Source: an uncultured Planctomycetia bacterium (lineage in GTDB: Bacteria > Omnitrophota > Gorgyraeia > 1-14-0-20-64-10). From it: a stretch of DNA of 64,000 nucleotides. Below, in pieces: positions 5,618 to 63,740 of the stretch. Every line of letters starts with the position of its first letter. The first letter of the stretch is position 1. The notes below the pieces were generated by a model, which did no database searches, was not told where the DNA came from, and saw only the letters and a list, made by a program, of their open reading frames with translations. Where the stretch lies: positions 5,714 through 69,713 of the forward strand of contig CAYJVR010000002.1 of the NCBI GenBank assembly GCA_964373715.1, read 5' to 3'. The position numbers and the translations under genes are program-made.

Positions 5618-6997
5618 TTGGCGTTCTCTCTTCTCTTTTTTGCCGCCCCCGTTTTTTCCCAGAACGAGTACGAAAGCGAAGTTCCTTCCCGCGAAACGGA
5701 AGCCCAGGCGAAAGCGCGGAAGACAGCCGCTCAGGCGCGGCAGCGCGTTCCCTTCGAAGGAAAGCAGGTGACCTACGAGCAGGTTCTCGCCGATCCCGAC
5801 AACATTGGTTTGAATTTCGATTACGCGAAGATACAGATCGTGCGCGGAGACGTTAAGGGGTCTGCGGCGACCCTCGAGAGGCTTCTTTTAGTGAACCCTA
5901 TGCTGGAGAAGGTTCGCCTCCTCTACGGGGTTGTTCTTTTCCGGCTCGACAATTTGGAAGAGGCCGAACGGATGCTTGACAGCGTGCGGGAGATGAAGAT
6001 TACAGACTCCCTGCGCGGGGAGGTGGATAATTATCTGCGCCAAATCCACCTGCGCCGCAAACGGACTCGCTGGACGGCCAGCGTAACCGCCGGGTTTGAA
6101 TTTGATTCGAACCGGAACGCCGCCTCCTCCTCAAAACAACGTTTGGTGGCGGATGCGCCGACAGGGTTGGGATCAAGCTCCCGAAAAAGGGATACGAGCT
6201 TCCTTGGGATCCAGAGCTTTAAGGTGTCCCATGATTTGGGGACTCAAGCGGGGCATCAGTTGTTCGCATCGTTCGACCATTTTCTTCAGGAGCAGACAGT
6301 GGTGAATTCCTTGGATCTGGAGTCCTTTTCGGGGGAGGCCGGCGGCTCCTTTAAGATCGGTCCCGCTGTTTTCACCCCTTCCGCCGAGATAGGCAACATC
6401 CGCCTTTCGAGAGAAACGTTCCTGCGGACGCAGGGAGGCGCCCTGCGCCTGGACCGGCGGGTCAACGAAAAGTGGGTTCTTTTTTGCAACGGGCGGTGGG
6501 TTCGGGAGGATTACACCGGCATTTCGGAGAACTCCGCCGCTCCGCAGCGGCGCGGGCACCGGGCAACTATGGAGCTTGGAACCAACTATGTGCTGAACCC
6601 GGCAATGCGGATTGACGTGAGCGGCAGCCTCATCACCAAATATGCGAAAGCGGCCTACTACGAGTATGACGGCTATGTTGCACAAGCGGGCCACACCTGG
6701 CTGCCAGGCAAGGGCCAGTTTCTGACGAACAGTTTTTCCTACGAGATGGATGCGTATGATGATCCGGATTTTGCCATCAGCGCCCGGACGCGGCGGGATG
6801 AAAAGTACCGGTACCGCCTGACATACGGGGCGCCCGTTTCTTTCTTTATAGGGAAAAAGATACTGCCTAAATTCATTCTGGATGACCTGACGGCAACGGT
6901 GATCTACGAACAATTTAGAGCGATATCCAACGTACAGAATTACACCTACACGAATTCAAAGGCAGTGGTCCTGTTAACAAAAACCGTGGAGTTTTAG
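5618..6997 (+). CDS. Outer-membrane beta-barrel protein with N-terminal TPR-like helical domain (architecture like Slam/DUF560 or FapF-type secretion pores)
   Basis: Signal peptide (LLFFAAPVFS/QN); ~130-aa helical TPR-like region; alternating hydrophobic beta-strand pattern; C-terminus ...KTVEF ends in Phe, the classic OMP beta-signal. Confidence 0.55.
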   Translation: MAFSLLFFAAPVFSQNEYESEVPSRETEAQAKARKTAAQARQRVPFEGKQVTYEQVLADPDNIGLNFDYAKIQIVRGDVKGSAATLERLLLVNPMLEKVRLLYGVVLFRLDNLEEAERMLDSVREMKITDSLRGEVDNYLRQIHLRRKRTRWTASVTAGFEFDSNRNAASSSKQRLVADAPTGLGSSSRKRDTSFLGIQSFKVSHDLGTQAGHQLFASFDHFLQEQTVVNSLDLESFSGEAGGSFKIGPAVFTPSAEIGNIRLSRETFLRTQGGALRLDRRVNEKWVLFCNGRWVREDYTGISENSAAPQRRGHRATMELGTNYVLNPAMRIDVSGSLITKYAKAAYYEYDGYVAQAGHTWLPGKGQFLTNSFSYEMDAYDDPDFAISARTRRDEKYRYRLTYGAPVSFFIGKKILPKFILDDLTATVIYEQFRAISNVQNYTYTNSKAVVLLTKTVEF

Positions 6998-56203: not shown

Positions 56204-57274
56204 GTGAAATCTTGGGATGAGAAAGTAGTCACGCGCCGTTCTTACGCGACCGGCGATCCGGTCATAGACGCGAAGATTTTGGAATTAACAGCCCCTTTCG
56301 ATGATCCTCAAGACCGCCGGCTCGTCGCGGAGTTGGTTGTTTCCGCCTACCGTCTGGGACGGGAAAAGGCCACCACGCTCGACCTGAAGATCATCAACAG
56401 CGCGGTGAAGGAACTGCGTTACGCCTTTAAGATCTTTAAACCGTACCGCAGGGTCAAAAAGGTCGCCACGTTCGGATCGGCACGGGTATCTCATAGGCAC
56501 CCGGCTTACAAGATGGCGAAGGATTTCGGGCGACTCATGTCCGAGGCCGGCTGGAGCGTTATCACTGGGGCCGCCAGCGGCATCATGAAGGCGGGCCATG
56601 AGGGAGCGGGCCGGGAGGCCAGTTTCGGGCTGAATATCCGGCTTCCTTTTGAACAGGAGGCCAATCCGGTCATCGCGGCCGATAAGAAACTGATCACCTG
56701 CAAGTATTTTTTCACCCGGAAACTGCTCTTTATCAGGGAATCGCACGCCACTGCGCTGTTTCCCGGAGGGTTCGGGACGCTCGACGAAGGGTTCGAGTCC
56801 CTCACGCTGGTCCAGACAGGAAAGTCGGATCCTCGCCCGATTGTTTTTGTTGATCTTCCCGGCAAAGGGTTTTGGAAGCCGCTGCTCAAGTTTATCGGCA
56901 GAGATTTGGTGAAGGAGAAAATGGTATCGCCGCACGACCCGTCTATTTACCAGGTGGCCACCTCTGCCGAGGAGGCGGCCCGGATGGTCCTCGATTTCTA
57001 CGCTGTTTACCATTCGATCCGGTATGTGAAGGAATGGACAGTTCTGCGGTTGCACAGGCCCCTCTCGTACAAAGCGGTGTCGCTTTTGAACAAGGAATTC
57101 AAGGACATCCTCTCGGATGGAGAAATCAGCCAGGGGCCGGCCGTTGCGGAAGAAGGGGATGAACCGGATTTGGAACTCTTAAGCCGCCTTATCCTTCGTT
57201 TCAACCGGAGGGATTACGGCCGCTTGAGCCAGATGATCCACAGGATCAATCAGATGGGGTCCGCGCAGGCCTAA
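56204..57274 (+). CDS. LOG-family protein, PpnN/YgdH-like nucleotide 5'-monophosphate nucleosidase
   Basis: Exact LOG signature PGGFGTLDE plus GAASGIM; ~360 aa with N- and C-terminal extensions as in PpnN; GTG start with AAAGGGGA SD; overlaps the preceding small gene. Confidence 0.65.
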   Translation: MKSWDEKVVTRRSYATGDPVIDAKILELTAPFDDPQDRRLVAELVVSAYRLGREKATTLDLKIINSAVKELRYAFKIFKPYRRVKKVATFGSARVSHRHPAYKMAKDFGRLMSEAGWSVITGAASGIMKAGHEGAGREASFGLNIRLPFEQEANPVIAADKKLITCKYFFTRKLLFIRESHATALFPGGFGTLDEGFESLTLVQTGKSDPRPIVFVDLPGKGFWKPLLKFIGRDLVKEKMVSPHDPSIYQVATSAEEAARMVLDFYAVYHSIRYVKEWTVLRLHRPLSYKAVSLLNKEFKDILSDGEISQGPAVAEEGDEPDLELLSRLILRFNRRDYGRLSQMIHRINQMGSAQA

Positions 57275-58473
57275 AGGCCCGATTTGTGCTGGAAGAGCCC
57301 GAGGCTGGAGGTGAAGCCGTGGATGAAATTCCGGCCCCCAACCGGCCCGATCTCTCCGTTGCAGAAGAAACCGGCGATCGGGCGGTTTCCAATCGCTGAC
57401 TGAATCGCCCGGATGTCGTAATTCGGCTCTCCGTAAAGGTCCCGCCCGCGCCCCAGACAGCTGAAGAGCAGCCCTCCGGCGGAAGGGGAGTTTTGGAAGC
57501 CGGGGGACTGCTCCTGAAGAAGGTGTTGGAGGTCCTCTTTTGAGGTGGCGGCGTCCCTCACCTGGAATTGGACCGTCTGCCCGACGCGGATCTTGTCGCC
57601 GACGGCCAACGCTCCCGAAGAGGGATCCATACCGATCAGGTTCCTGATAAGGAAATCCCCGCGCCGGAATTTATCCTTTTGTTCGTTCATTACGACCCCG
57701 ACGAAAAGGGCCCGTTGTGCCAAGGCTTTGTCCTGGTCGGAGAGGCTTATCAAAAGCGTCCGAAGCGCCTCCACGGCCGGCACCCCGGCCAGTTCCAGCA
57801 GCACGTTATCGTCCGCTTTCGTGACGATAAATGGCCTGCCGATCGGGCGGCATCCTTGGGAGACGATTGTTTGGAGCGCCACGTCGCCGGTGAAAACGAC
57901 CCCGACGGCCCCTTCTTTAAGGGCTTTGTCATTCAGGAAAAGGGCGTTCGGAGTCGCGTCATCGGCGCCGCTGGCCAGGCCCCCGATCAGGGGCATTTTG
58001 GGGTAGGCGTTTTTCAGTGATTCGATAAGCCTCATGCAGTCGCAGGAAAACGGCTCAGGCAAAAGCACGCCGATCGGCTCGTCGCCGGGAGTGGCGCCCA
58101 ATTTTTCGATCCAGAAACCCGGTCCTCGATCCTCCTGGAGGTCCTCCGGGGAGATGACAAACGGGTGCATGTTAACGCGGGGCAGATAAGCGCCGGCCAG
58201 AGAGACGGCCGGCGTGAATTCCAACTCCTGGTCCTTGCCGAGCACTCCGCCTCCGGTGCATCCGATAAGAAGAGGGTTGCCGAGCCGGCACCGGACTTCC
58301 TGCGCCACATGTTGCCAATCGGTTCGGTAGAGGCTGGAAATAAAAAGGAAGGCCGCGTGGCAGGGGTGCCCTTGAAGCTGAGAGAGCACGTCGTCGCAGC
58401 CTTTTTGCAAGGCCGCCTGAGGGTCTTTGTCATCCGAAATGCTGCTGCCAAACCGCATCTGTTCCGTCGGCAT
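57271..58473 (-). CDS. FIST-domain (FIST_N/FIST_C) sensory protein
   Basis: 400 aa, cytoplasmic; two-lobed Gly-rich pattern I associate with FIST proteins. Architecture-level call only. Confidence 0.4.
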   Translation of the reverse strand: MPTEQMRFGSSISDDKDPQAALQKGCDDVLSQLQGHPCHAAFLFISSLYRTDWQHVAQEVRCRLGNPLLIGCTGGGVLGKDQELEFTPAVSLAGAYLPRVNMHPFVISPEDLQEDRGPGFWIEKLGATPGDEPIGVLLPEPFSCDCMRLIESLKNAYPKMPLIGGLASGADDATPNALFLNDKALKEGAVGVVFTGDVALQTIVSQGCRPIGRPFIVTKADDNVLLELAGVPAVEALRTLLISLSDQDKALAQRALFVGVVMNEQKDKFRRGDFLIRNLIGMDPSSGALAVGDKIRVGQTVQFQVRDAATSKEDLQHLLQEQSPGFQNSPSAGGLLFSCLGRGRDLYGEPNYDIRAIQSAIGNRPIAGFFCNGEIGPVGGRNFIHGFTSSLGLFQHKSGL

Positions 58474-58599
58474 GGGGCCATTCTACCATCTTGTTTTGGA
58501 TGCGTGGCCGATTTGGCCCCGGAAGGTGTTAAAATTCTTGTTACCATCCATAAAAGGGAAATCTCGCGGTTCATCCGTTTTTAAAAAGGCAAAAGTCCA

Positions 58600-60549
58600 A
58601 TGGACGATACATTTCAAGGGGCGGCCATCCTCTCTTTTGAAAGCCGCCAGGCCGACACGATGGCGAGGAACATCGCGCTTCACGGAGGACTGCCGGTCAG
58701 CGCCCCCTGTCTTCAAGAGATTCCTCTCTCAGCCAGCCCGGAGGCGGAGGCGTTTTCCCGGATGCTTTTGGGCGGCGAGATAGACGTTTTTATCTTCATG
58801 ACCGGCGTCGGAACGCGGATCCTGCTCGATCTGCTTTCTTCCGGGGATTCCGCCGAGAAGGTGGCTCACGCAATTCGCCGTACAACGGTAGTGGCCCGCG
58901 GCCCGAAACCGATCCGGGCGCTCCGGGAGCGAGGCATCCCGGCGACCATCACGGTCCCTGAGCCGAACACCTGGGTGGAAGTCGTCCAGGCGATTGATTT
59001 CAGCAGCCGGTCGGCCGGTTTGGCCGGCCGTACGGTGGCGATCCAGGAGTACGGATCCTCCAACCGCCGGCTCATCCATGCTCTTAAGGAGCGGGGGGCG
59101 CGCGTGATACCGGTGGCCGCCTACCGCTGGGCTTTGCCTGAAGATACTGGCCCCCTGCTGGAGGGGATCCGCCGGTTGATTGCCGGGAAAATCCGGGCGG
59201 TTCTTTTCACGAATGCCGAGCAGATCCGCCAATTGGTCGGTTTCGCGGCCGAAAAAGGAATGGAGATCCCTTTGCGTGAAGCGATGAAGAAAACGGTCGT
59301 CGCTTCGATCGGCCCGAATACAAGCGACGCGCTGATGGAACACGGCCTCTGTGTCGATTTCGAGCCGTCCCACCCGAAGATGGGGATACTCGTCGCGGAG
59401 CTGGCATCACGGCTGGGGGAACTGCTTAAGCGGAAAAACGGTTCTACCCGTGGTTTGAGCCTCAGCAGCGCTCAACCGCTTCCTCCGATTCCTTCGAGAT
59501 CGCCTGACGGTTGCGGTCGAGAAGCTGTTTTCTTGAAAGCTTGTCGTCGAGAGGTTACACCGGTCACGCCGGTTTGGCTGATGCGGCAGGCCGGCCGCTA
59601 CATGAAGGAATACCAGGAGATCCGCAGGAAGGTCCCTTTCCTTGAGCTGTGCAAGAACAAGGAATTGGTGGCCGAGGTGACGGTTCACGCGGCGAAAAAG
59701 ATCAAGGCAGATGCGGCGATCCTCTTCTCCGATATCCTCGTCGTGGTGGAGCCGCTTGGGCTTGGGCTGGAATACACGGCCCAGGACGGGCCGGTCATCT
59801 CGGGTCAGGTGGCCTCTTCGGCCGATGTGGACCGGCTCGCCGAGATTGAGCCGGAGGAATCTCTCCGGTTTGTTTTTGACTCCGTCCGGCTGACCCGCGC
59901 CTCGCTGGATCCGAAGGTTCCGCTGATCGGTTTCTCGGGGGCCCCGTTTACGCTGGCATCATACGTAATCGAAGGGGGAAGCTCGAAATCCTTTTTCAAC
60001 ACCAAGAAGCTGATGATCACCGATCCCGGCGCCTGGAACGCCTTGATGGAGAAGATCAGCCGGGGACTGGTCAAATATCTCAACGGCCAAATTGAGGCGG
60101 GGGCCGATGCTATCCAGTTGTTCGACAGCTGGGTCGGCTGTCTGACCCCCGAGGATTACCGCCGGTTTGTGCTTCCTCATACCCGGTCGGTGATCCGGGG
60201 GATCCGGCCCGGGGTTCCGGTGATCCACTTCGGGACCGGGACGGCCGGATTTTTAAGCGAGATGCGGGAGGCGGGAGGCGACGTGATCGGTGTTGATTTC
60301 AGGGTCCGGCTGGATGAAGCATGGCAGTGCATCGGTCACGATGCCGGCATCCAGGGGAACCTCGATCCGGTTGTCCTCTGCGGCCCGCTCGATGAGATAC
60401 GCCGCCGGGTCAAAGAGATATTGAACCAGGCGGCCGGCCGGCCCGGCCACATTTTCAATCTCGGGCACGGGATCCTGCCTTACACGCCGGTGGAGAACGT
60501 GATCGCGCTTGTGGAGATGGTCCACGAACTGAGCCAGCGGCCGGAGTGA
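58600..60549 (+). CDS. hemE: Fusion protein: uroporphyrinogen-III synthase (HemD) N-terminal plus uroporphyrinogen decarboxylase (HemE) C-terminal
   Basis: Residues 1-270 show the HemD two-lobed pattern ([17 protein letters not shown]; [15 protein letters not shown]). From ~320 the HemE N-terminal signature [16 protein letters not shown] and the rest of the UroD TIM barrel follow. Confidence 0.75.
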
Positions 60550-60556
60550 CGGGCGG

Positions 60557-61990
60557 ATGAAGAGGTTCCTCGTGATCGGCGGCGGGATCTCCGGTTTGGC
60601 GGCGGCGCACCGTCTCTGTGAGATCTCCCGCGCTTCGTCCGAGAAGTTTGAGATTACGCTGCTGGAAGCCTCTGGCCGGTTCGGCGGGGTCATCGAGACC
60701 CGCCGCAGGGACGGTTTTCTGCTCGAGGGGGGGCCGGACGCTTTCATCACCGATAAGCCGTGGGCGCTCGACCTGTGCAAAAGGCTCGGCCTGGGAAATG
60801 AGATCATCGCCACCAACCCGGCGTGCCGGCGTTCATTCATCGTTTACAAGTCCAAACTGGTGCCGGTGCCCGAAGGATTTTATCTGATCGCCCCCACCTC
60901 GTTAAAGGCGCTGTTTGCCAACGGCACTTTAAGCTGGCCGGGCAAGCTGAGATTTTTAGCCGACATAGCGATCCCTCCGAAGAAGAACGGCTTGGATGAG
61001 AGCGTCGGCTCTTTTATCCGGCGGCGTTTCGGAAAAGAGGCTCTCGACCGGATCGGCCAGCCGATGATCGGCGGTATCTACACCGCCGATCCTGGCCGTT
61101 TGAGCTTGAAGGCCACATTCCCTCAATTCATCGAGGCCGAGAGCCGGTTCGGGTCCGTGATCCGCGGTTTCTTGCGGGAGGAATCTGCGGCCAGACAGGC
61201 GAGCGGCCCCCGGTACGGTCTCTTTGCCTCCTTAAAGGGCGGGGTAGGTTCGTTGGTCGAGGCGTTGGCGGCGAAAATGCCGGAAGTTTCCCTGCGCCTC
61301 TCATCGCCGGTCGTGCGTCTTCAGCCTGGCGACAGATGGACGGCGGTCTTGTCCGGAGGCGGAGTTCTTGAGGCGGATGCCGTCTGCGCGGCGCTTCCTG
61401 CCCGTCAGGCGGCCGGCCTTCTTGAATCGTTTGATCCCCAGACGGCGCGCCGGCTGAAAGAAGCGTCCGCCGAATCGGTGGCCACCGTCAACATGGCGTT
61501 CCGGAGGAAAGAGATTCCCCATTCTCTGGAAGGATTCGGGTTTGTCGTTCCCGCGGTCGAAAAAGCGAGTCTCATCGGCTGCACCTTCTCGAGCGTCAAG
61601 TTCTCTCAGAGGGCTCCTGAAGGGATGGTCCTTCTCCGTGCGTTTGTCGGGGGGCCGTTCCAGAAAGAGATGATGGTGAAGGATGACCTCTCGCTGGAAA
61701 GAACAGTGCTCGAGGGTCTGCGCCGCACGCTTGGCATTGAAGCGCCCCCCCGGTTCGTCTCGATACAGCGCTACCACGAAGCGATGCCGGTCTATACGGT
61801 CGGCCACCTCGATTGGGTGGAGGCTCTGGAAAAAGAATTGTCGAAGCATCCGGGTCTTTACGTGACGGGCGGCAGTTACCGGGGCGTCGGGATACCGGAC
61901 TGCATTCGCCAGGCCGAGGCGGCCGCAGAGCGGATGGCCGCGCAATCGGCGGACAGCCCGCGCGCAAGGGGAATGGCTCATGGGGTTTGA
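60557..61990 (+). CDS. hemY: Protoporphyrinogen/coproporphyrinogen oxidase (HemY/CgoX-type FAD oxidase)
   Basis: FAD motif VIGGGISGLAAA; ~477 aa; sits between hemE and hemH. Confidence 0.8.
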   Translation: MKRFLVIGGGISGLAAAHRLCEISRASSEKFEITLLEASGRFGGVIETRRRDGFLLEGGPDAFITDKPWALDLCKRLGLGNEIIATNPACRRSFIVYKSKLVPVPEGFYLIAPTSLKALFANGTLSWPGKLRFLADIAIPPKKNGLDESVGSFIRRRFGKEALDRIGQPMIGGIYTADPGRLSLKATFPQFIEAESRFGSVIRGFLREESAARQASGPRYGLFASLKGGVGSLVEALAAKMPEVSLRLSSPVVRLQPGDRWTAVLSGGGVLEADAVCAALPARQAAGLLESFDPQTARRLKEASAESVATVNMAFRRKEIPHSLEGFGFVVPAVEKASLIGCTFSSVKFSQRAPEGMVLLRAFVGGPFQKEMMVKDDLSLERTVLEGLRRTLGIEAPPRFVSIQRYHEAMPVYTVGHLDWVEALEKELSKHPGLYVTGGSYRGVGIPDCIRQAEAAAERMAAQSADSPRARGMAHGV

Positions 61991-62906
61991 CCATATTTTC
62001 CTGATTGGTTTCGGCGGCCCTGCCCAGCCCGAGGATGTGCTCCCTTTTCTTCAGGTGGTGACGAAAGGGACGAATGTGCCGGAGGCTCGTTTGAAGGAGG
62101 TTGCCCATCATTATGAGCAGACGGGCGGCTTCTCCCCGTATAACGAGCATGCGTTCCGGTTGACGGACAGCCTCAAGAAAAGCCTTGAGGCGGCGGGTGT
62201 CGTGCTGCCTGTTTTCATCGGCATGCGGAACTGGCACCCTTTCCTTAAGGAGACTCTTCTTCAAATCTCGCAGAAAGGTTTGAAGAAAGGCCTCGGAGTG
62301 ATTCTGGCCCCCCACCGCTCCTATTCGAGTTTCGAGAAATACACCGTCAGCCTTGAGGAAGCCCAGAGAGAGACCGGGACGTCCGCCATCCGGTACGGCT
62401 ATCTCGGCCCCTGGCACACCCACCCGTTTTTTATCGCGGCGCATGCCGACCATATCCGGAAAATTCTCGACCCGCTTGATCCGAAAGAAAGGAATGCCAC
62501 CCAGCTTATCTTCTGCGCCCACTCGATCCCGGCAGAGATTGCCGGCAGATCGAGATACGCTGAAGAATTCAAGGAGTCGAGCGCCTGCGTGGCCCGGGAG
62601 CTGAAGCACGACGCATGGACGACCGCTTATCAATCGAGGAGCGGCCCCCCTTCCCAGCCGTGGCTGGAGCCGGATATCAGTGACGTGATTCGGGGTCTTA
62701 AGCAAAAAGGGTGGCGCCGGGCGGTGGTGGTCCCGGTCGGCTTTCTTTTTGACCATACCGAGGTGCTCTACGATCTGGATCTGGAGGCGAAGAGTGAAGC
62801 GAAGGAAGCCGGCATCGAGTTCAGGCGGGCTTCGACCGTCATGGACCATCCGAAATTCGTCGCGATGTTCACCGAATTGATCAAAAATAGGGTGGTGGTC
62901 GATTGA
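61980..62906 (+). CDS. hemH: Ferrochelatase
   Basis: N-terminus IFLIGFGGPAQPEDVLPFLQVV; conserved QSRSGPPSQPWLEP; 308 aa. Confidence 0.85.
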   Translation: MGFDHIFLIGFGGPAQPEDVLPFLQVVTKGTNVPEARLKEVAHHYEQTGGFSPYNEHAFRLTDSLKKSLEAAGVVLPVFIGMRNWHPFLKETLLQISQKGLKKGLGVILAPHRSYSSFEKYTVSLEEAQRETGTSAIRYGYLGPWHTHPFFIAAHADHIRKILDPLDPKERNATQLIFCAHSIPAEIAGRSRYAEEFKESSACVARELKHDAWTTAYQSRSGPPSQPWLEPDISDVIRGLKQKGWRRAVVVPVGFLFDHTEVLYDLDLEAKSEAKEAGIEFRRASTVMDHPKFVAMFTELIKNRVVVD

Positions 62907-63270
62907 CCGGCCCAAGTTTGCTGATTGCCGGGTGCGGCTATCTCGGTCTGCGTGTGTGCCGGGAGGCCTCAGCGAGGGGCTGGAAAGTGTGGGGTCTGCG
63001 CCGGAATCCTGAAGCGGCCGGGCTGATCCGCGAGGCGGGCGGCGAGGCAATCATCGCCGACCTTACCGATCCGCGCGCGCTGACCGGCCGGTCCTCAAAT
63101 CGGAGTTCTACCCCTGGCTGGCCCGGCAGGCGGGTATCCCTCTTCCTCCCGCGGGACCCTCCGGTCCCGGCACGAAGCGGATTTCCAACAGGAAAGTCAA
63201 GGCCCTGGGGTACTCTTTTAAATACCACGATTACCTCTCCGGTTTCCCTGAAGCTTTAAGAAAAGGTTAA
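62903..63270 (+). pseudogene. Frameshifted, internally truncated NAD-dependent epimerase/SDR-like gene remnant
   Basis: Frame 1 (62903-63259) gives a Rossmann-type N-terminus LLIAGCGYLGLRVCREASARGWKVWGLRR that decays into low complexity. A second frame from ~63091 to TAA 63270 gives an epimerase-like C-terminus (...KRISNRKVKALGYSFKYHDYLSGFPEAL*). The frames switch at a (CG)4 run at 63072-63080. The whole is ~120 aa versus ~300 for intact homologues. Confidence 0.3.
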
Positions 63271-63326
63271 AACAGCGGTGAAGGTGTATATTCTCGGATG
63301 GGCGGAGTTAAACAAGGAGGAGCACA

Positions 63327-63740
63327 ATGAAAGAGAGTTGCGGTTCATCTGGGGCGTCGTCGTGCGGCGAGGAGCATGTGAAGACAACGGACGTTGCCGC
63401 TATCACGAAGGAGCAGCTGCAGAAAAAGATCCAGGCTGGGAACGTGCAGGTGGTCAACGTGCTCGACCCGAAATGGTACGAGCTGGGATTCATCAAGGGG
63501 TCGCAGAAGATTCCACTGAAAGAGTTGGATACGAGGGCTGGCGAGCTGGATAAATCGAAAGAGGTGGTGACCTACTGTGCTTCCACCGAGTGCAGCGCTT
63601 CCCGTGAGGCGGCCGAGAAACTGGCGGCCAAGGGGTTCAAGGTCAGCGCCTACGAAGGGGGGATCAAGGAGTGGAAGGCGTCTGGGTTGCCAACCGAAAA
63701 AGAGGGATCCGGACACTCCTCCTCCTGCTGCGGCGGATAA
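63327..63740 (+). CDS. Rhodanese-domain sulfurtransferase with Cys-rich termini
   Basis: Rhodanese fold (VVNVLDP...GSQKIP...VVTYCAST active-site Cys loop); N-terminal CGSSGASSCG and C-terminal SSSCCGG; AAGGAGG SD. Confidence 0.65.
   Translation: MKESCGSSGASSCGEEHVKTTDVAAITKEQLQKKIQAGNVQVVNVLDPKWYELGFIKGSQKIPLKELDTRAGELDKSKEVVTYCASTECSASREAAEKLAAKGFKVSAYEGGIKEWKASGLPTEKEGSGHSSSCCGG

Follow-up and report, generated by a model that had tools for sequence, protein, structure and literature searches.

Enzymes for neighboring steps of the tetrapyrrole pathway can be joined in a single polypeptide, as in the known CobA-HemD and HemC-HemD fusions, and in Bacillus subtilis the late heme operon of the coproporphyrin-dependent pathway is hemEHY. 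A HemH-HemQ (CpfC-ChdC) fusion is present in Cutibacterium acnes (PMC13564367). Here, we describe a fusion that follows the same principle with a different partner pair: hemD, for uroporphyrinogen-III synthase (U3S or UroS), and hemE, for uroporphyrinogen decarboxylase (UroD), joined in one gene. It lies in a 64,000-nucleotide stretch of DNA (hereafter, the window; positions 5,714 to 69,713 of contig CAYJVR010000002.1, assembly GCA_964373715.1) from an uncultured bacterium placed in the Omnitrophota by GTDB. From its sequence and predicted structure, we consider it quite probable that the gene would encode a bifunctional HemD-HemE enzyme with two loosely tethered modules, would have originated by the loss of a stop codon, and would head an operon of the coproporphyrin route. 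While the fusing of adjacent tetrapyrrole-pathway steps is already known, the HemD-HemE pairing is present in sequence databases without a description that we could find in the literature.

Comparison with described enzymes and operons

Each half of the fusion resembles well-described stand-alone enzymes. The U3S of Thermus (1WCW and 3D8N) and the ~280-amino-acid HEM4 proteins of Nitrospira and Acidobacteriota have the same two-lobed fold and the same TGVG, ARGxK, QxYG, and YR(W/H) motifs as the N-terminal domain of the fusion, which is ~48% identical to the Nitrospira and Acidobacteriota proteins and ~25% identical to Thermus U3S. In contrast to these stand-alone forms, the HEM4 domain encoded in the window is covalently joined to HemE, and the stand-alone genes of Nitrospira do not lie beside hemE. 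The C-terminal domain is 38 to 44% identical to the stand-alone HemE of Escherichia coli/Shigella (3CYV), B. subtilis (2INF), and human (1URO), with target-normalized template modeling (TM) scores of 0.89 to 0.94 and the same catalytic motifs; it differs from them in that it is preceded by ~306 extra N-terminal residues, comprising the HemD domain and a linker. UroD is a homodimer (PMC13564367), and a dimer of the fusion would presumably carry two HemD modules.

At the level of gene order, the locus resembles hemEHY of B. subtilis in that hemE, hemY, and hemH are clustered, with a HemY nearest that of B. subtilis and a HemH nearest the coproporphyrin ferrochelatases. It differs in that the order in the window is E-Y-H and that hemD has left the early-gene cluster for the late operon, where it is fused to hemE.

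A conserved and recurrent gene fusion

The fused gene (58600..60549, + strand) has an ATG start and zero internal stops across its 649 codons, as the first-pass annotation of the window had proposed in calling it a single uninterrupted open reading frame (ORF), and its base composition is even throughout, the junction included. The missed stop or frameshift between the halves that the same annotation had named as a possible refutation was looked for and not found: the exact 649-amino-acid product was recovered from an NCBI metagenome-assembled genome (MAG) contig (GCA_947085675.1; 315,815 bp) and from two separately assembled Logan runs. The best 120 matches among 5.8 billion clustered proteins all carried both PF02602 (HEM4) and PF01208 (URO-D), at 57–100% identity and nearly all with lengths of ~620-716 amino acids. 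An exhaustive HMMER search of 1.84 billion representatives at 50% identity retrieved ~20 full-length fusion clusters with 34 to 52% identity to the query. The hemD-hemE fusion is a genuine, conserved gene, not an assembly artifact. The first-pass annotation had known of no fusion of this kind. This stood as far as descriptions are concerned, since we found none in the searchable full-text literature or in a 2026 heme review (PMC13564367), but not as a sign of rarity, given at least 120 database clusters with both domains and fused loci in several phyla.

A profile scan with the N-terminal domain, using one genome per GTDB species, retrieved at least 80 loci. Together with seven loci fetched earlier, 87 were classed by domain hidden Markov models (HMMs), including three copies of the window locus and one duplicate. 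Among the matches listed, the HEM4 subfamily was fused at 34 of the 87 loci and unfused at the other 53. Lineages of the fused loci, as named in record titles, included Omnitrophota (L008-L016), for which every locus of the clade in our tree was fused; Acidobacteriota/Terriglobia (L022, L028, L039, L053, L056, L058, L059, L061, L066, L072, and L083); Armatimonadota and Abditibacteriales (L030 and L026); a Thermodesulfobacteriota chromosome (L082); a Spirochaetia MAG (L036); and bacterium HR37 (L017). The HemD-HemE fusion is not rare, being abundant across several little-studied bacterial phyla.

Unfused relatives suggest how the fusion arose. Its usual context is fusion-hemY-hemH or fusion-hemH-hemY, and the same genes recur around unfused orthologues: in an Omnitrophota MAG (L089), a 278-amino-acid hemD overlaps a 342-amino-acid hemE by 14 nucleotides and is followed by hemH and hemY; at L043, hemD and hemE overlap by 4 nucleotides, again followed by hemH and hemY. 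At L018 and L023, hemD is divergent from hemE-hemH-hemY. The overlapping arrangements of L089 and L043 point to an origin by loss of the hemD stop codon, and we infer that the fusion most probably arose in this way from adjacent, overlapping hemD and hemE. In a neighbor-joining tree of the N-terminal domains, which carries no support values, fused and unfused clades interleave.

A second type of fusion has the same order of HEM4 then URO-D and a similar length. Its representative, P0372 (620 amino acids; L090), lies in a different operon, hemA-hemC-[HEM4-URO-D]-hemN-hemH, where it fills the slots of both hemD and hemE. The HEM4 domain of P0372 is only 23% identical to that encoded in the window and is more canonical (167 bits to the Pfam profile). 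Fused relatives of P0372 (P0395, P0396, P0401, and P0501) are sporadic, and its HemE relatives are mostly unfused. By these sequence relationships, the P0372-type fusion is of independent origin from a different HemD lineage.

HemE was also found in other combinations among metagenomic proteins, each a single cluster representative unscreened for assembly artifacts: HemC-HemE (Porphobil_deam plus URO-D; P0367), HemE-HemH (P0351), HemH-HemE (P0319), and HemE plus radical-SAM/HemN_C (P0376).

Linker and proposed mechanism

In the family alignment, the two halves are joined by a linker of 26 amino acids, 11 of which are Ser or Pro. An AlphaFold2 model of the fusion had a mean predicted local distance difference test (pLDDT) score of 88.1 and predicted disorder at residues 282-301 only, with pLDDT below 50 at residues 282-293 and 298-301; in the model, the helix formed by residues 261-280 is part of the HemD domain rather than of the linker. 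The Pro/Ser-rich character noted in the first-pass annotation was apparent, yet the linker is about half the ~50 amino acids estimated there. When 37 members were aligned, the HemD half averaged 56% identity to the window protein and the HemE half 72%, but the linker averaged 9% and varied in length from 17 to 67 amino acids; the gap between HMM domain matches varied from 18 to 89 amino acids across the 34 fusion loci. Such a pattern, with conserved halves on either side of a freely evolving tether, is what marks a real multidomain protein.

In the mechanism we propose, the N-terminal two-lobed HEM4 domain would cyclize hydroxymethylbilane, with inversion of the D ring, to uroporphyrinogen III, and the C-terminal TIM-barrel HemE domain would then remove the four acetate carboxyls from uroporphyrinogen III to yield coproporphyrinogen III. 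A CgoX-like HemY and a CpfC-like HemH would carry coproporphyrinogen III along the coproporphyrin-dependent route, the fusion being the putative first cistron of a translationally coupled hem(D-E)-hemY-hemH operon. The benefit of fusion would lie in obligatory 1:1 co-expression and in the nearness of two consecutive active sites, with no structured tunnel. A linker that is short, disordered, and not conserved suggests co-expression and proximity, rather than a fixed channel, as the likely gain.

Several points weigh against this mechanism or parts of it. U3S enzymes have few diagnostic residues, so that catalytic competence cannot be read from the sequence alone. The HemD half also fell below the cut-offs of the NCBIfam HemD equivalog models (131.6 versus 233 bits for NF004584; 118.5 versus 273 for NF005568). 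The AlphaFold2 model had a predicted TM score of 0.66, at which the geometry between domains is unreliable. Lastly, a tblastn search with the ChdC-like protein of L013 found no ChdC homologue in the window, in the 6.5 kb beyond it, or in L001; the coproporphyrin branch is therefore not proven for the source genome.

The mechanism could also go further than proximity. In true channeling, the HemD site would hand uroporphyrinogen III directly to the HemE site, committing flux to heme and keeping the intermediate from the branch enzymes of siroheme, B12, and heme d1 synthesis. We regard this as unlikely, although consecutive enzymes do stand within one chain, the HemD-HemE fusion has at least two origins, in HEM4 lineages unrelated to each other, and it has been kept across whole clades, e.g., at all loci of the Omnitrophota clade in the tree; such repetition suggests some selective benefit. 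Against channeling, the disorder, lack of conservation, and several-fold length variation of the linker are typical of a passive tether, and close relatives alternate between the fused and the unfused state, implying that the fusion is dispensable. Nor is a UroS-UroD complex known in other systems; a recent review reports that no physical complex has been shown among the soluble mid-pathway heme enzymes (PMC13564367).

A related and equally tentative proposition is that Omnitrophota, together with several lineages of Acidobacteriota, Armatimonadota, and other groups, might have the fusion as their only uroporphyrinogen-III synthase. The fusion would then act as a kinetically coupled machine from hydroxymethylbilane to coproporphyrinogen III that favors the III isomer, and heme over siroheme and B12, and its convergent origins would reflect selection for coupling. 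If so, hemD would seem to be missing from these genomes for the reason that the product is named as a decarboxylase only.

The HemD half

The N-terminal domain matched the HEM4 profile (PF02602) over residues 20-265 (E = 4.3e-33; 114.8 bits versus a Pfam gathering threshold of 27.5; positions 2-230 covered in the 231-position profile), as expected of the HemD-like domain called from the sequence at first reading. A mismatch to HEM4, the other outcome that would have refuted the first-pass annotation, did not occur. Its closest solved relative by sequence was the U3S of Thermus thermophilus (1WCW; E = 1.5e-13), with which it shares TGVG, ARGxK, QxYG, and YR; the Thermus enzyme is among those U3S that have been purified (PMC13564367). 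In Foldseek comparisons, the N-terminal domain matched the Thermus structure 1WCX with a TM score of 0.75, other Thermus conformers with 0.52 to 0.60, and human U3S (1JR2) with 0.66. This spread across Thermus conformers fits the known hinge flexibility of U3S. In the predicted model, the HemD half has the two α/β lobes and the two-stranded hinge between them that are expected of a U3S fold, and the matches to both the Thermus and the human enzymes agree with the two lobes described in the first-pass annotation.

Conservation points the same way. Invariant in the alignments of both fused and stand-alone members were E14, R16, T68-G69-x-G71, R100-K103, E121-P122, T124, Q149-E150, G152, Y175, W177, Q208, G238, and D253 (numbered in the fusion), while N123, Y151, T204, and P239 were invariant in the stand-alone HEM4 alignment and showed conservation of 90% or more in the fusions. 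Y175 aligned with the Tyr of "PYRH" in Thermus U3S and, in a weak profile alignment (hhalign E = 0.014), with the Tyr of "CYQR" in E. coli HemD; a catalytic role has reportedly been proposed for the conserved hinge-strand Tyr in work on a product complex of the Thermus enzyme. The stand-alone members of this HEM4 subfamily (~280 amino acids) occur widely among Nitrospirota and Acidobacteriota, and their sources give them the name uroporphyrinogen-III synthase.

The HEM4 domain might instead be noncatalytic, a tetrapyrrole-binding module with a regulatory or scaffolding role on HemE, comparable to the HEM4-like domains fused to DNA-binding domains, with the true uroporphyrinogen-III synthase encoded elsewhere. 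The missed equivalog cut-offs could be taken in this sense, as could the fact that one of the two best models, NF005568/PRK07239, spans 381 positions and is thus longer than plain HemD; PRK07239 presumably represents HemD-like proteins of mycobacteria that carry a regulator domain at the C terminus. Both NF004584 and NF005568 are lineage-specific HemD models, and U3S sequences are highly divergent. The review stresses U3S as a poorly conserved enzyme, with human and Thermus U3S only 14% identical (PMC13564367). Essentially all residues invariant in the stand-alone proteins are kept in the fused domain, including the motifs and the conserved Tyr in common with the purified and crystallized Thermus enzyme. 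Gene context argues likewise against a noncatalytic module: unfused orthologues sit in hemD|hemE|hemH|hemY operons, the independent fusion of L090 has its HEM4 in the hemD slot right after hemC, and no second HEM4 recurred within ~4 kb of 29 fusion loci. A HEM4 domain with a regulatory role only is accordingly disfavored and, on these sequence comparisons, appears improbable. A survey of 150 flanking ORFs at these 29 loci likewise showed none of the early heme genes (Porphobil_deam, ALAD, or GlutR), HEM4, or TP_methylase as recurrent among the 25 most frequent Pfam families.

The HemE half and the junction

The C-terminal half is, by its sequence, an ordinary and complete HemE. It matched PF01208 (URO-D) over residues 311-643 (E = 6.4e-124; 413.9 bits versus a Pfam gathering threshold of 23.9; positions 6-345 covered in the 346-position profile) and passed the cut-off of the hemE equivalog TIGR01464 (402.5 versus 302.95 bits). 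The diagnostic HemE motif singled out in the first-pass annotation lies at residues 324-338 (15 residues). All expected motifs were present, namely MRQAGRY (with its Arg pair), FSDIL (Asp), PFTLASY (Tyr), FDSW (Ser), and FNLGHG (His); none of them varies across the 37 fusion members aligned, and they align with those of 3CYV, 4WSH, and 2INF. We take the substrate-binding and catalytic roles of these residues to be those of human UROD. The predicted (β/α)8 barrel, modeled mostly with pLDDT above 90, superimposed on 3CYV with a target-normalized TM score of 0.94 (root mean square deviation of 1.6 Å; E = 2.3e-31; 44% identity).

An artifactual joining of separate genes, whether through a missed stop, a sequencing frameshift, or chimeric assembly, is so improbable as to be negligible: halves in different frames at L020, L064, and L070 show that frameshifts, real or erroneous, do occur among relatives, but the same 649-amino-acid product came from all three assemblies, over 150 full-length homologues from independent assemblies have the linker in frame, the composition is smooth over the junction, and the linker has neither a stop nor a Met codon and is followed in frame by the conserved N-terminal helix of HemE (FLKACRRE).

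A separate start for HemE within the ORF was considered and rejected. With no Met in the linker, the first one available is M328 (in WLMRQ), from which a product would lack the conserved N-terminal helix.

In the three species-level genomes with split frames (L020 7884-9939, L064 1659-3805, and L070 5149-7328), the ORFs of the HemD and HemE halves overlap. Candidate explanations are frameshift errors, pseudogenization, and recent fission of the fused gene.

Operon context and pathway branch

Directly after the fusion and on the same strand are hemY and hemH (Table 1), with spacing as tight as would be expected of the compact late heme operon proposed for this locus at the outset. HemY passed TIGR00562 (311.6 versus 97.85 bits), and its best solved relative was HemY of B. 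subtilis (3I6D; 296 bits), followed by that of Myxococcus xanthus (2IVD; 209 bits). HemH matched PF00762 (252 bits) and TIGR00109 (163 bits versus a cut-off of 124.6), and its top solved relatives were either B. subtilis ferrochelatase or entries that bear the deposited name "coproporphyrin III ferrochelatase." Such typing of HemY and HemH follows best matches and does not prove substrate specificity. In L013, the gene immediately before the fusion is a ChdC-like member of the chlorite dismutase family (PF06778), and such a gene is also close to the fusion in L010. The hemY/hemH context thereby points to the coproporphyrin-dependent branch, as judged from sequence similarity.

Table 1. Features of the hemD-hemE locus, in window coordinates
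Feature	Coordinates	Strand	Description
hemD-hemE fusion gene	58600..60549	+	649 amino acids plus stop; ATG start; continuous ORF with HEM4 and URO-D
HemD (uroporphyrinogen-III synthase, HEM4) domain	58621..59439	+	Residues 8-280; Pfam match at residues 20-265
Interdomain linker	59440..59517	+	Residues 281-306; Ser/Pro-rich, predicted disordered
HemE (uroporphyrinogen decarboxylase) domain	59518..60546	+	Residues 307-649
hemY (HemY-type oxidase, most like CgoX)	60557..61990	+	7-nucleotide gap after hemD-hemE; TIGR00562
hemH ferrochelatase (most like CpfC)	61980..62906	+	11-nucleotide overlap with hemY; PF00762, TIGR00109
Divergent intergenic region	58474..58599	.	Between FIST gene (-) and hemD-hemE; presumed promoter and ribosome-binding site

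No sigma-70 consensus site was found in the divergent intergenic region, and a promoter/terminator scan of 58300-63500 gave no promoter-like site upstream of hemD-hemE. Terminator-like matches in the same interval were all intragenic and, at 9 versus 5.4 ± 2.4 expected from shuffles, uninformative.

Annotation and significance

Where sources name the full-length fusion, they call it "uroporphyrinogen decarboxylase" only, save for one "hypothetical protein." The window protein itself has no source name on record. With the UroS domain hidden under a decarboxylase name, pathway reconstructions for MAGs of Omnitrophota and Acidobacteriota could falsely record hemD as missing. UroS is the least conserved of the heme enzymes. 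Some heme-synthesizing organisms are still without an annotated UroS (2026 review; PMC13564367). The known chemistry is unchanged by the fusion and the component enzymes are textbook ones, making the finding useful rather than surprising. The fusion and its close unfused orthologues (L089 and L043) form a natural matched pair for proximity effects on isomer fidelity and on partitioning at the branch point. For evolution, they offer what looks like a clean case of the fusion of overlapping genes by stop-codon loss, in an architecture that recurs convergently.

Neighboring genes

The public ferrochelatase call for hemH is 271 amino acids long and starts at window position 62091 (L001 13492-14307). 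In the 308-amino-acid ORF that starts at 61980, coverage of the Pfam Ferrochelatase profile begins at residue 6, so the deposited model probably lacks 37 N-terminal residues.

Upstream of the fusion, and divergent from it, is a gene for a FIST_N plus FIST_C sensor-domain protein (57271-58473, - strand). At L005, an otherwise syntenic Omnitrophota locus, a LOG-family gene abuts the fusion and there is no FIST gene, which suggests a lineage-specific insertion rather than a part of the heme module. The synteny with L005, together with named homologues of the fusion, supports the placement of the window in Omnitrophota. Giant genes lie immediately upstream of or near the fusion in L006 (1-9642; the record is labeled Candidatus Omnitrophota) and L007 (1-1630), with products of 9,596 and 8,175 amino acids, respectively, that have no Pfam matches.

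Downstream of hemH, a 118-amino-acid ORF (62903-63259, + strand) is a decayed gene. When the intact 279-amino-acid Epimerase/NAD_binding_10 protein encoded after hemH at L005 was used as a tblastn query, its residues 4-62 matched at 62912-63088 and, after a change of frame, its residues 214-273 matched at 63088-63261, indicating an internal deletion of ~150 codons together with a frameshift. The remnant is common to all three assemblies (L001-L003). An intact Epimerase gene also follows the heme cluster in L007 and L019 and may be a conserved, uncharacterized neighbor of the Omnitrophota heme operon. Farther downstream (window 63327 onward), a block of genes for rhodanese, YceI, Cu/Zn superoxide dismutase, and Urate_ox_N-family proteins is syntenic between L001 (14728-17178) and L005 (15731-17956).

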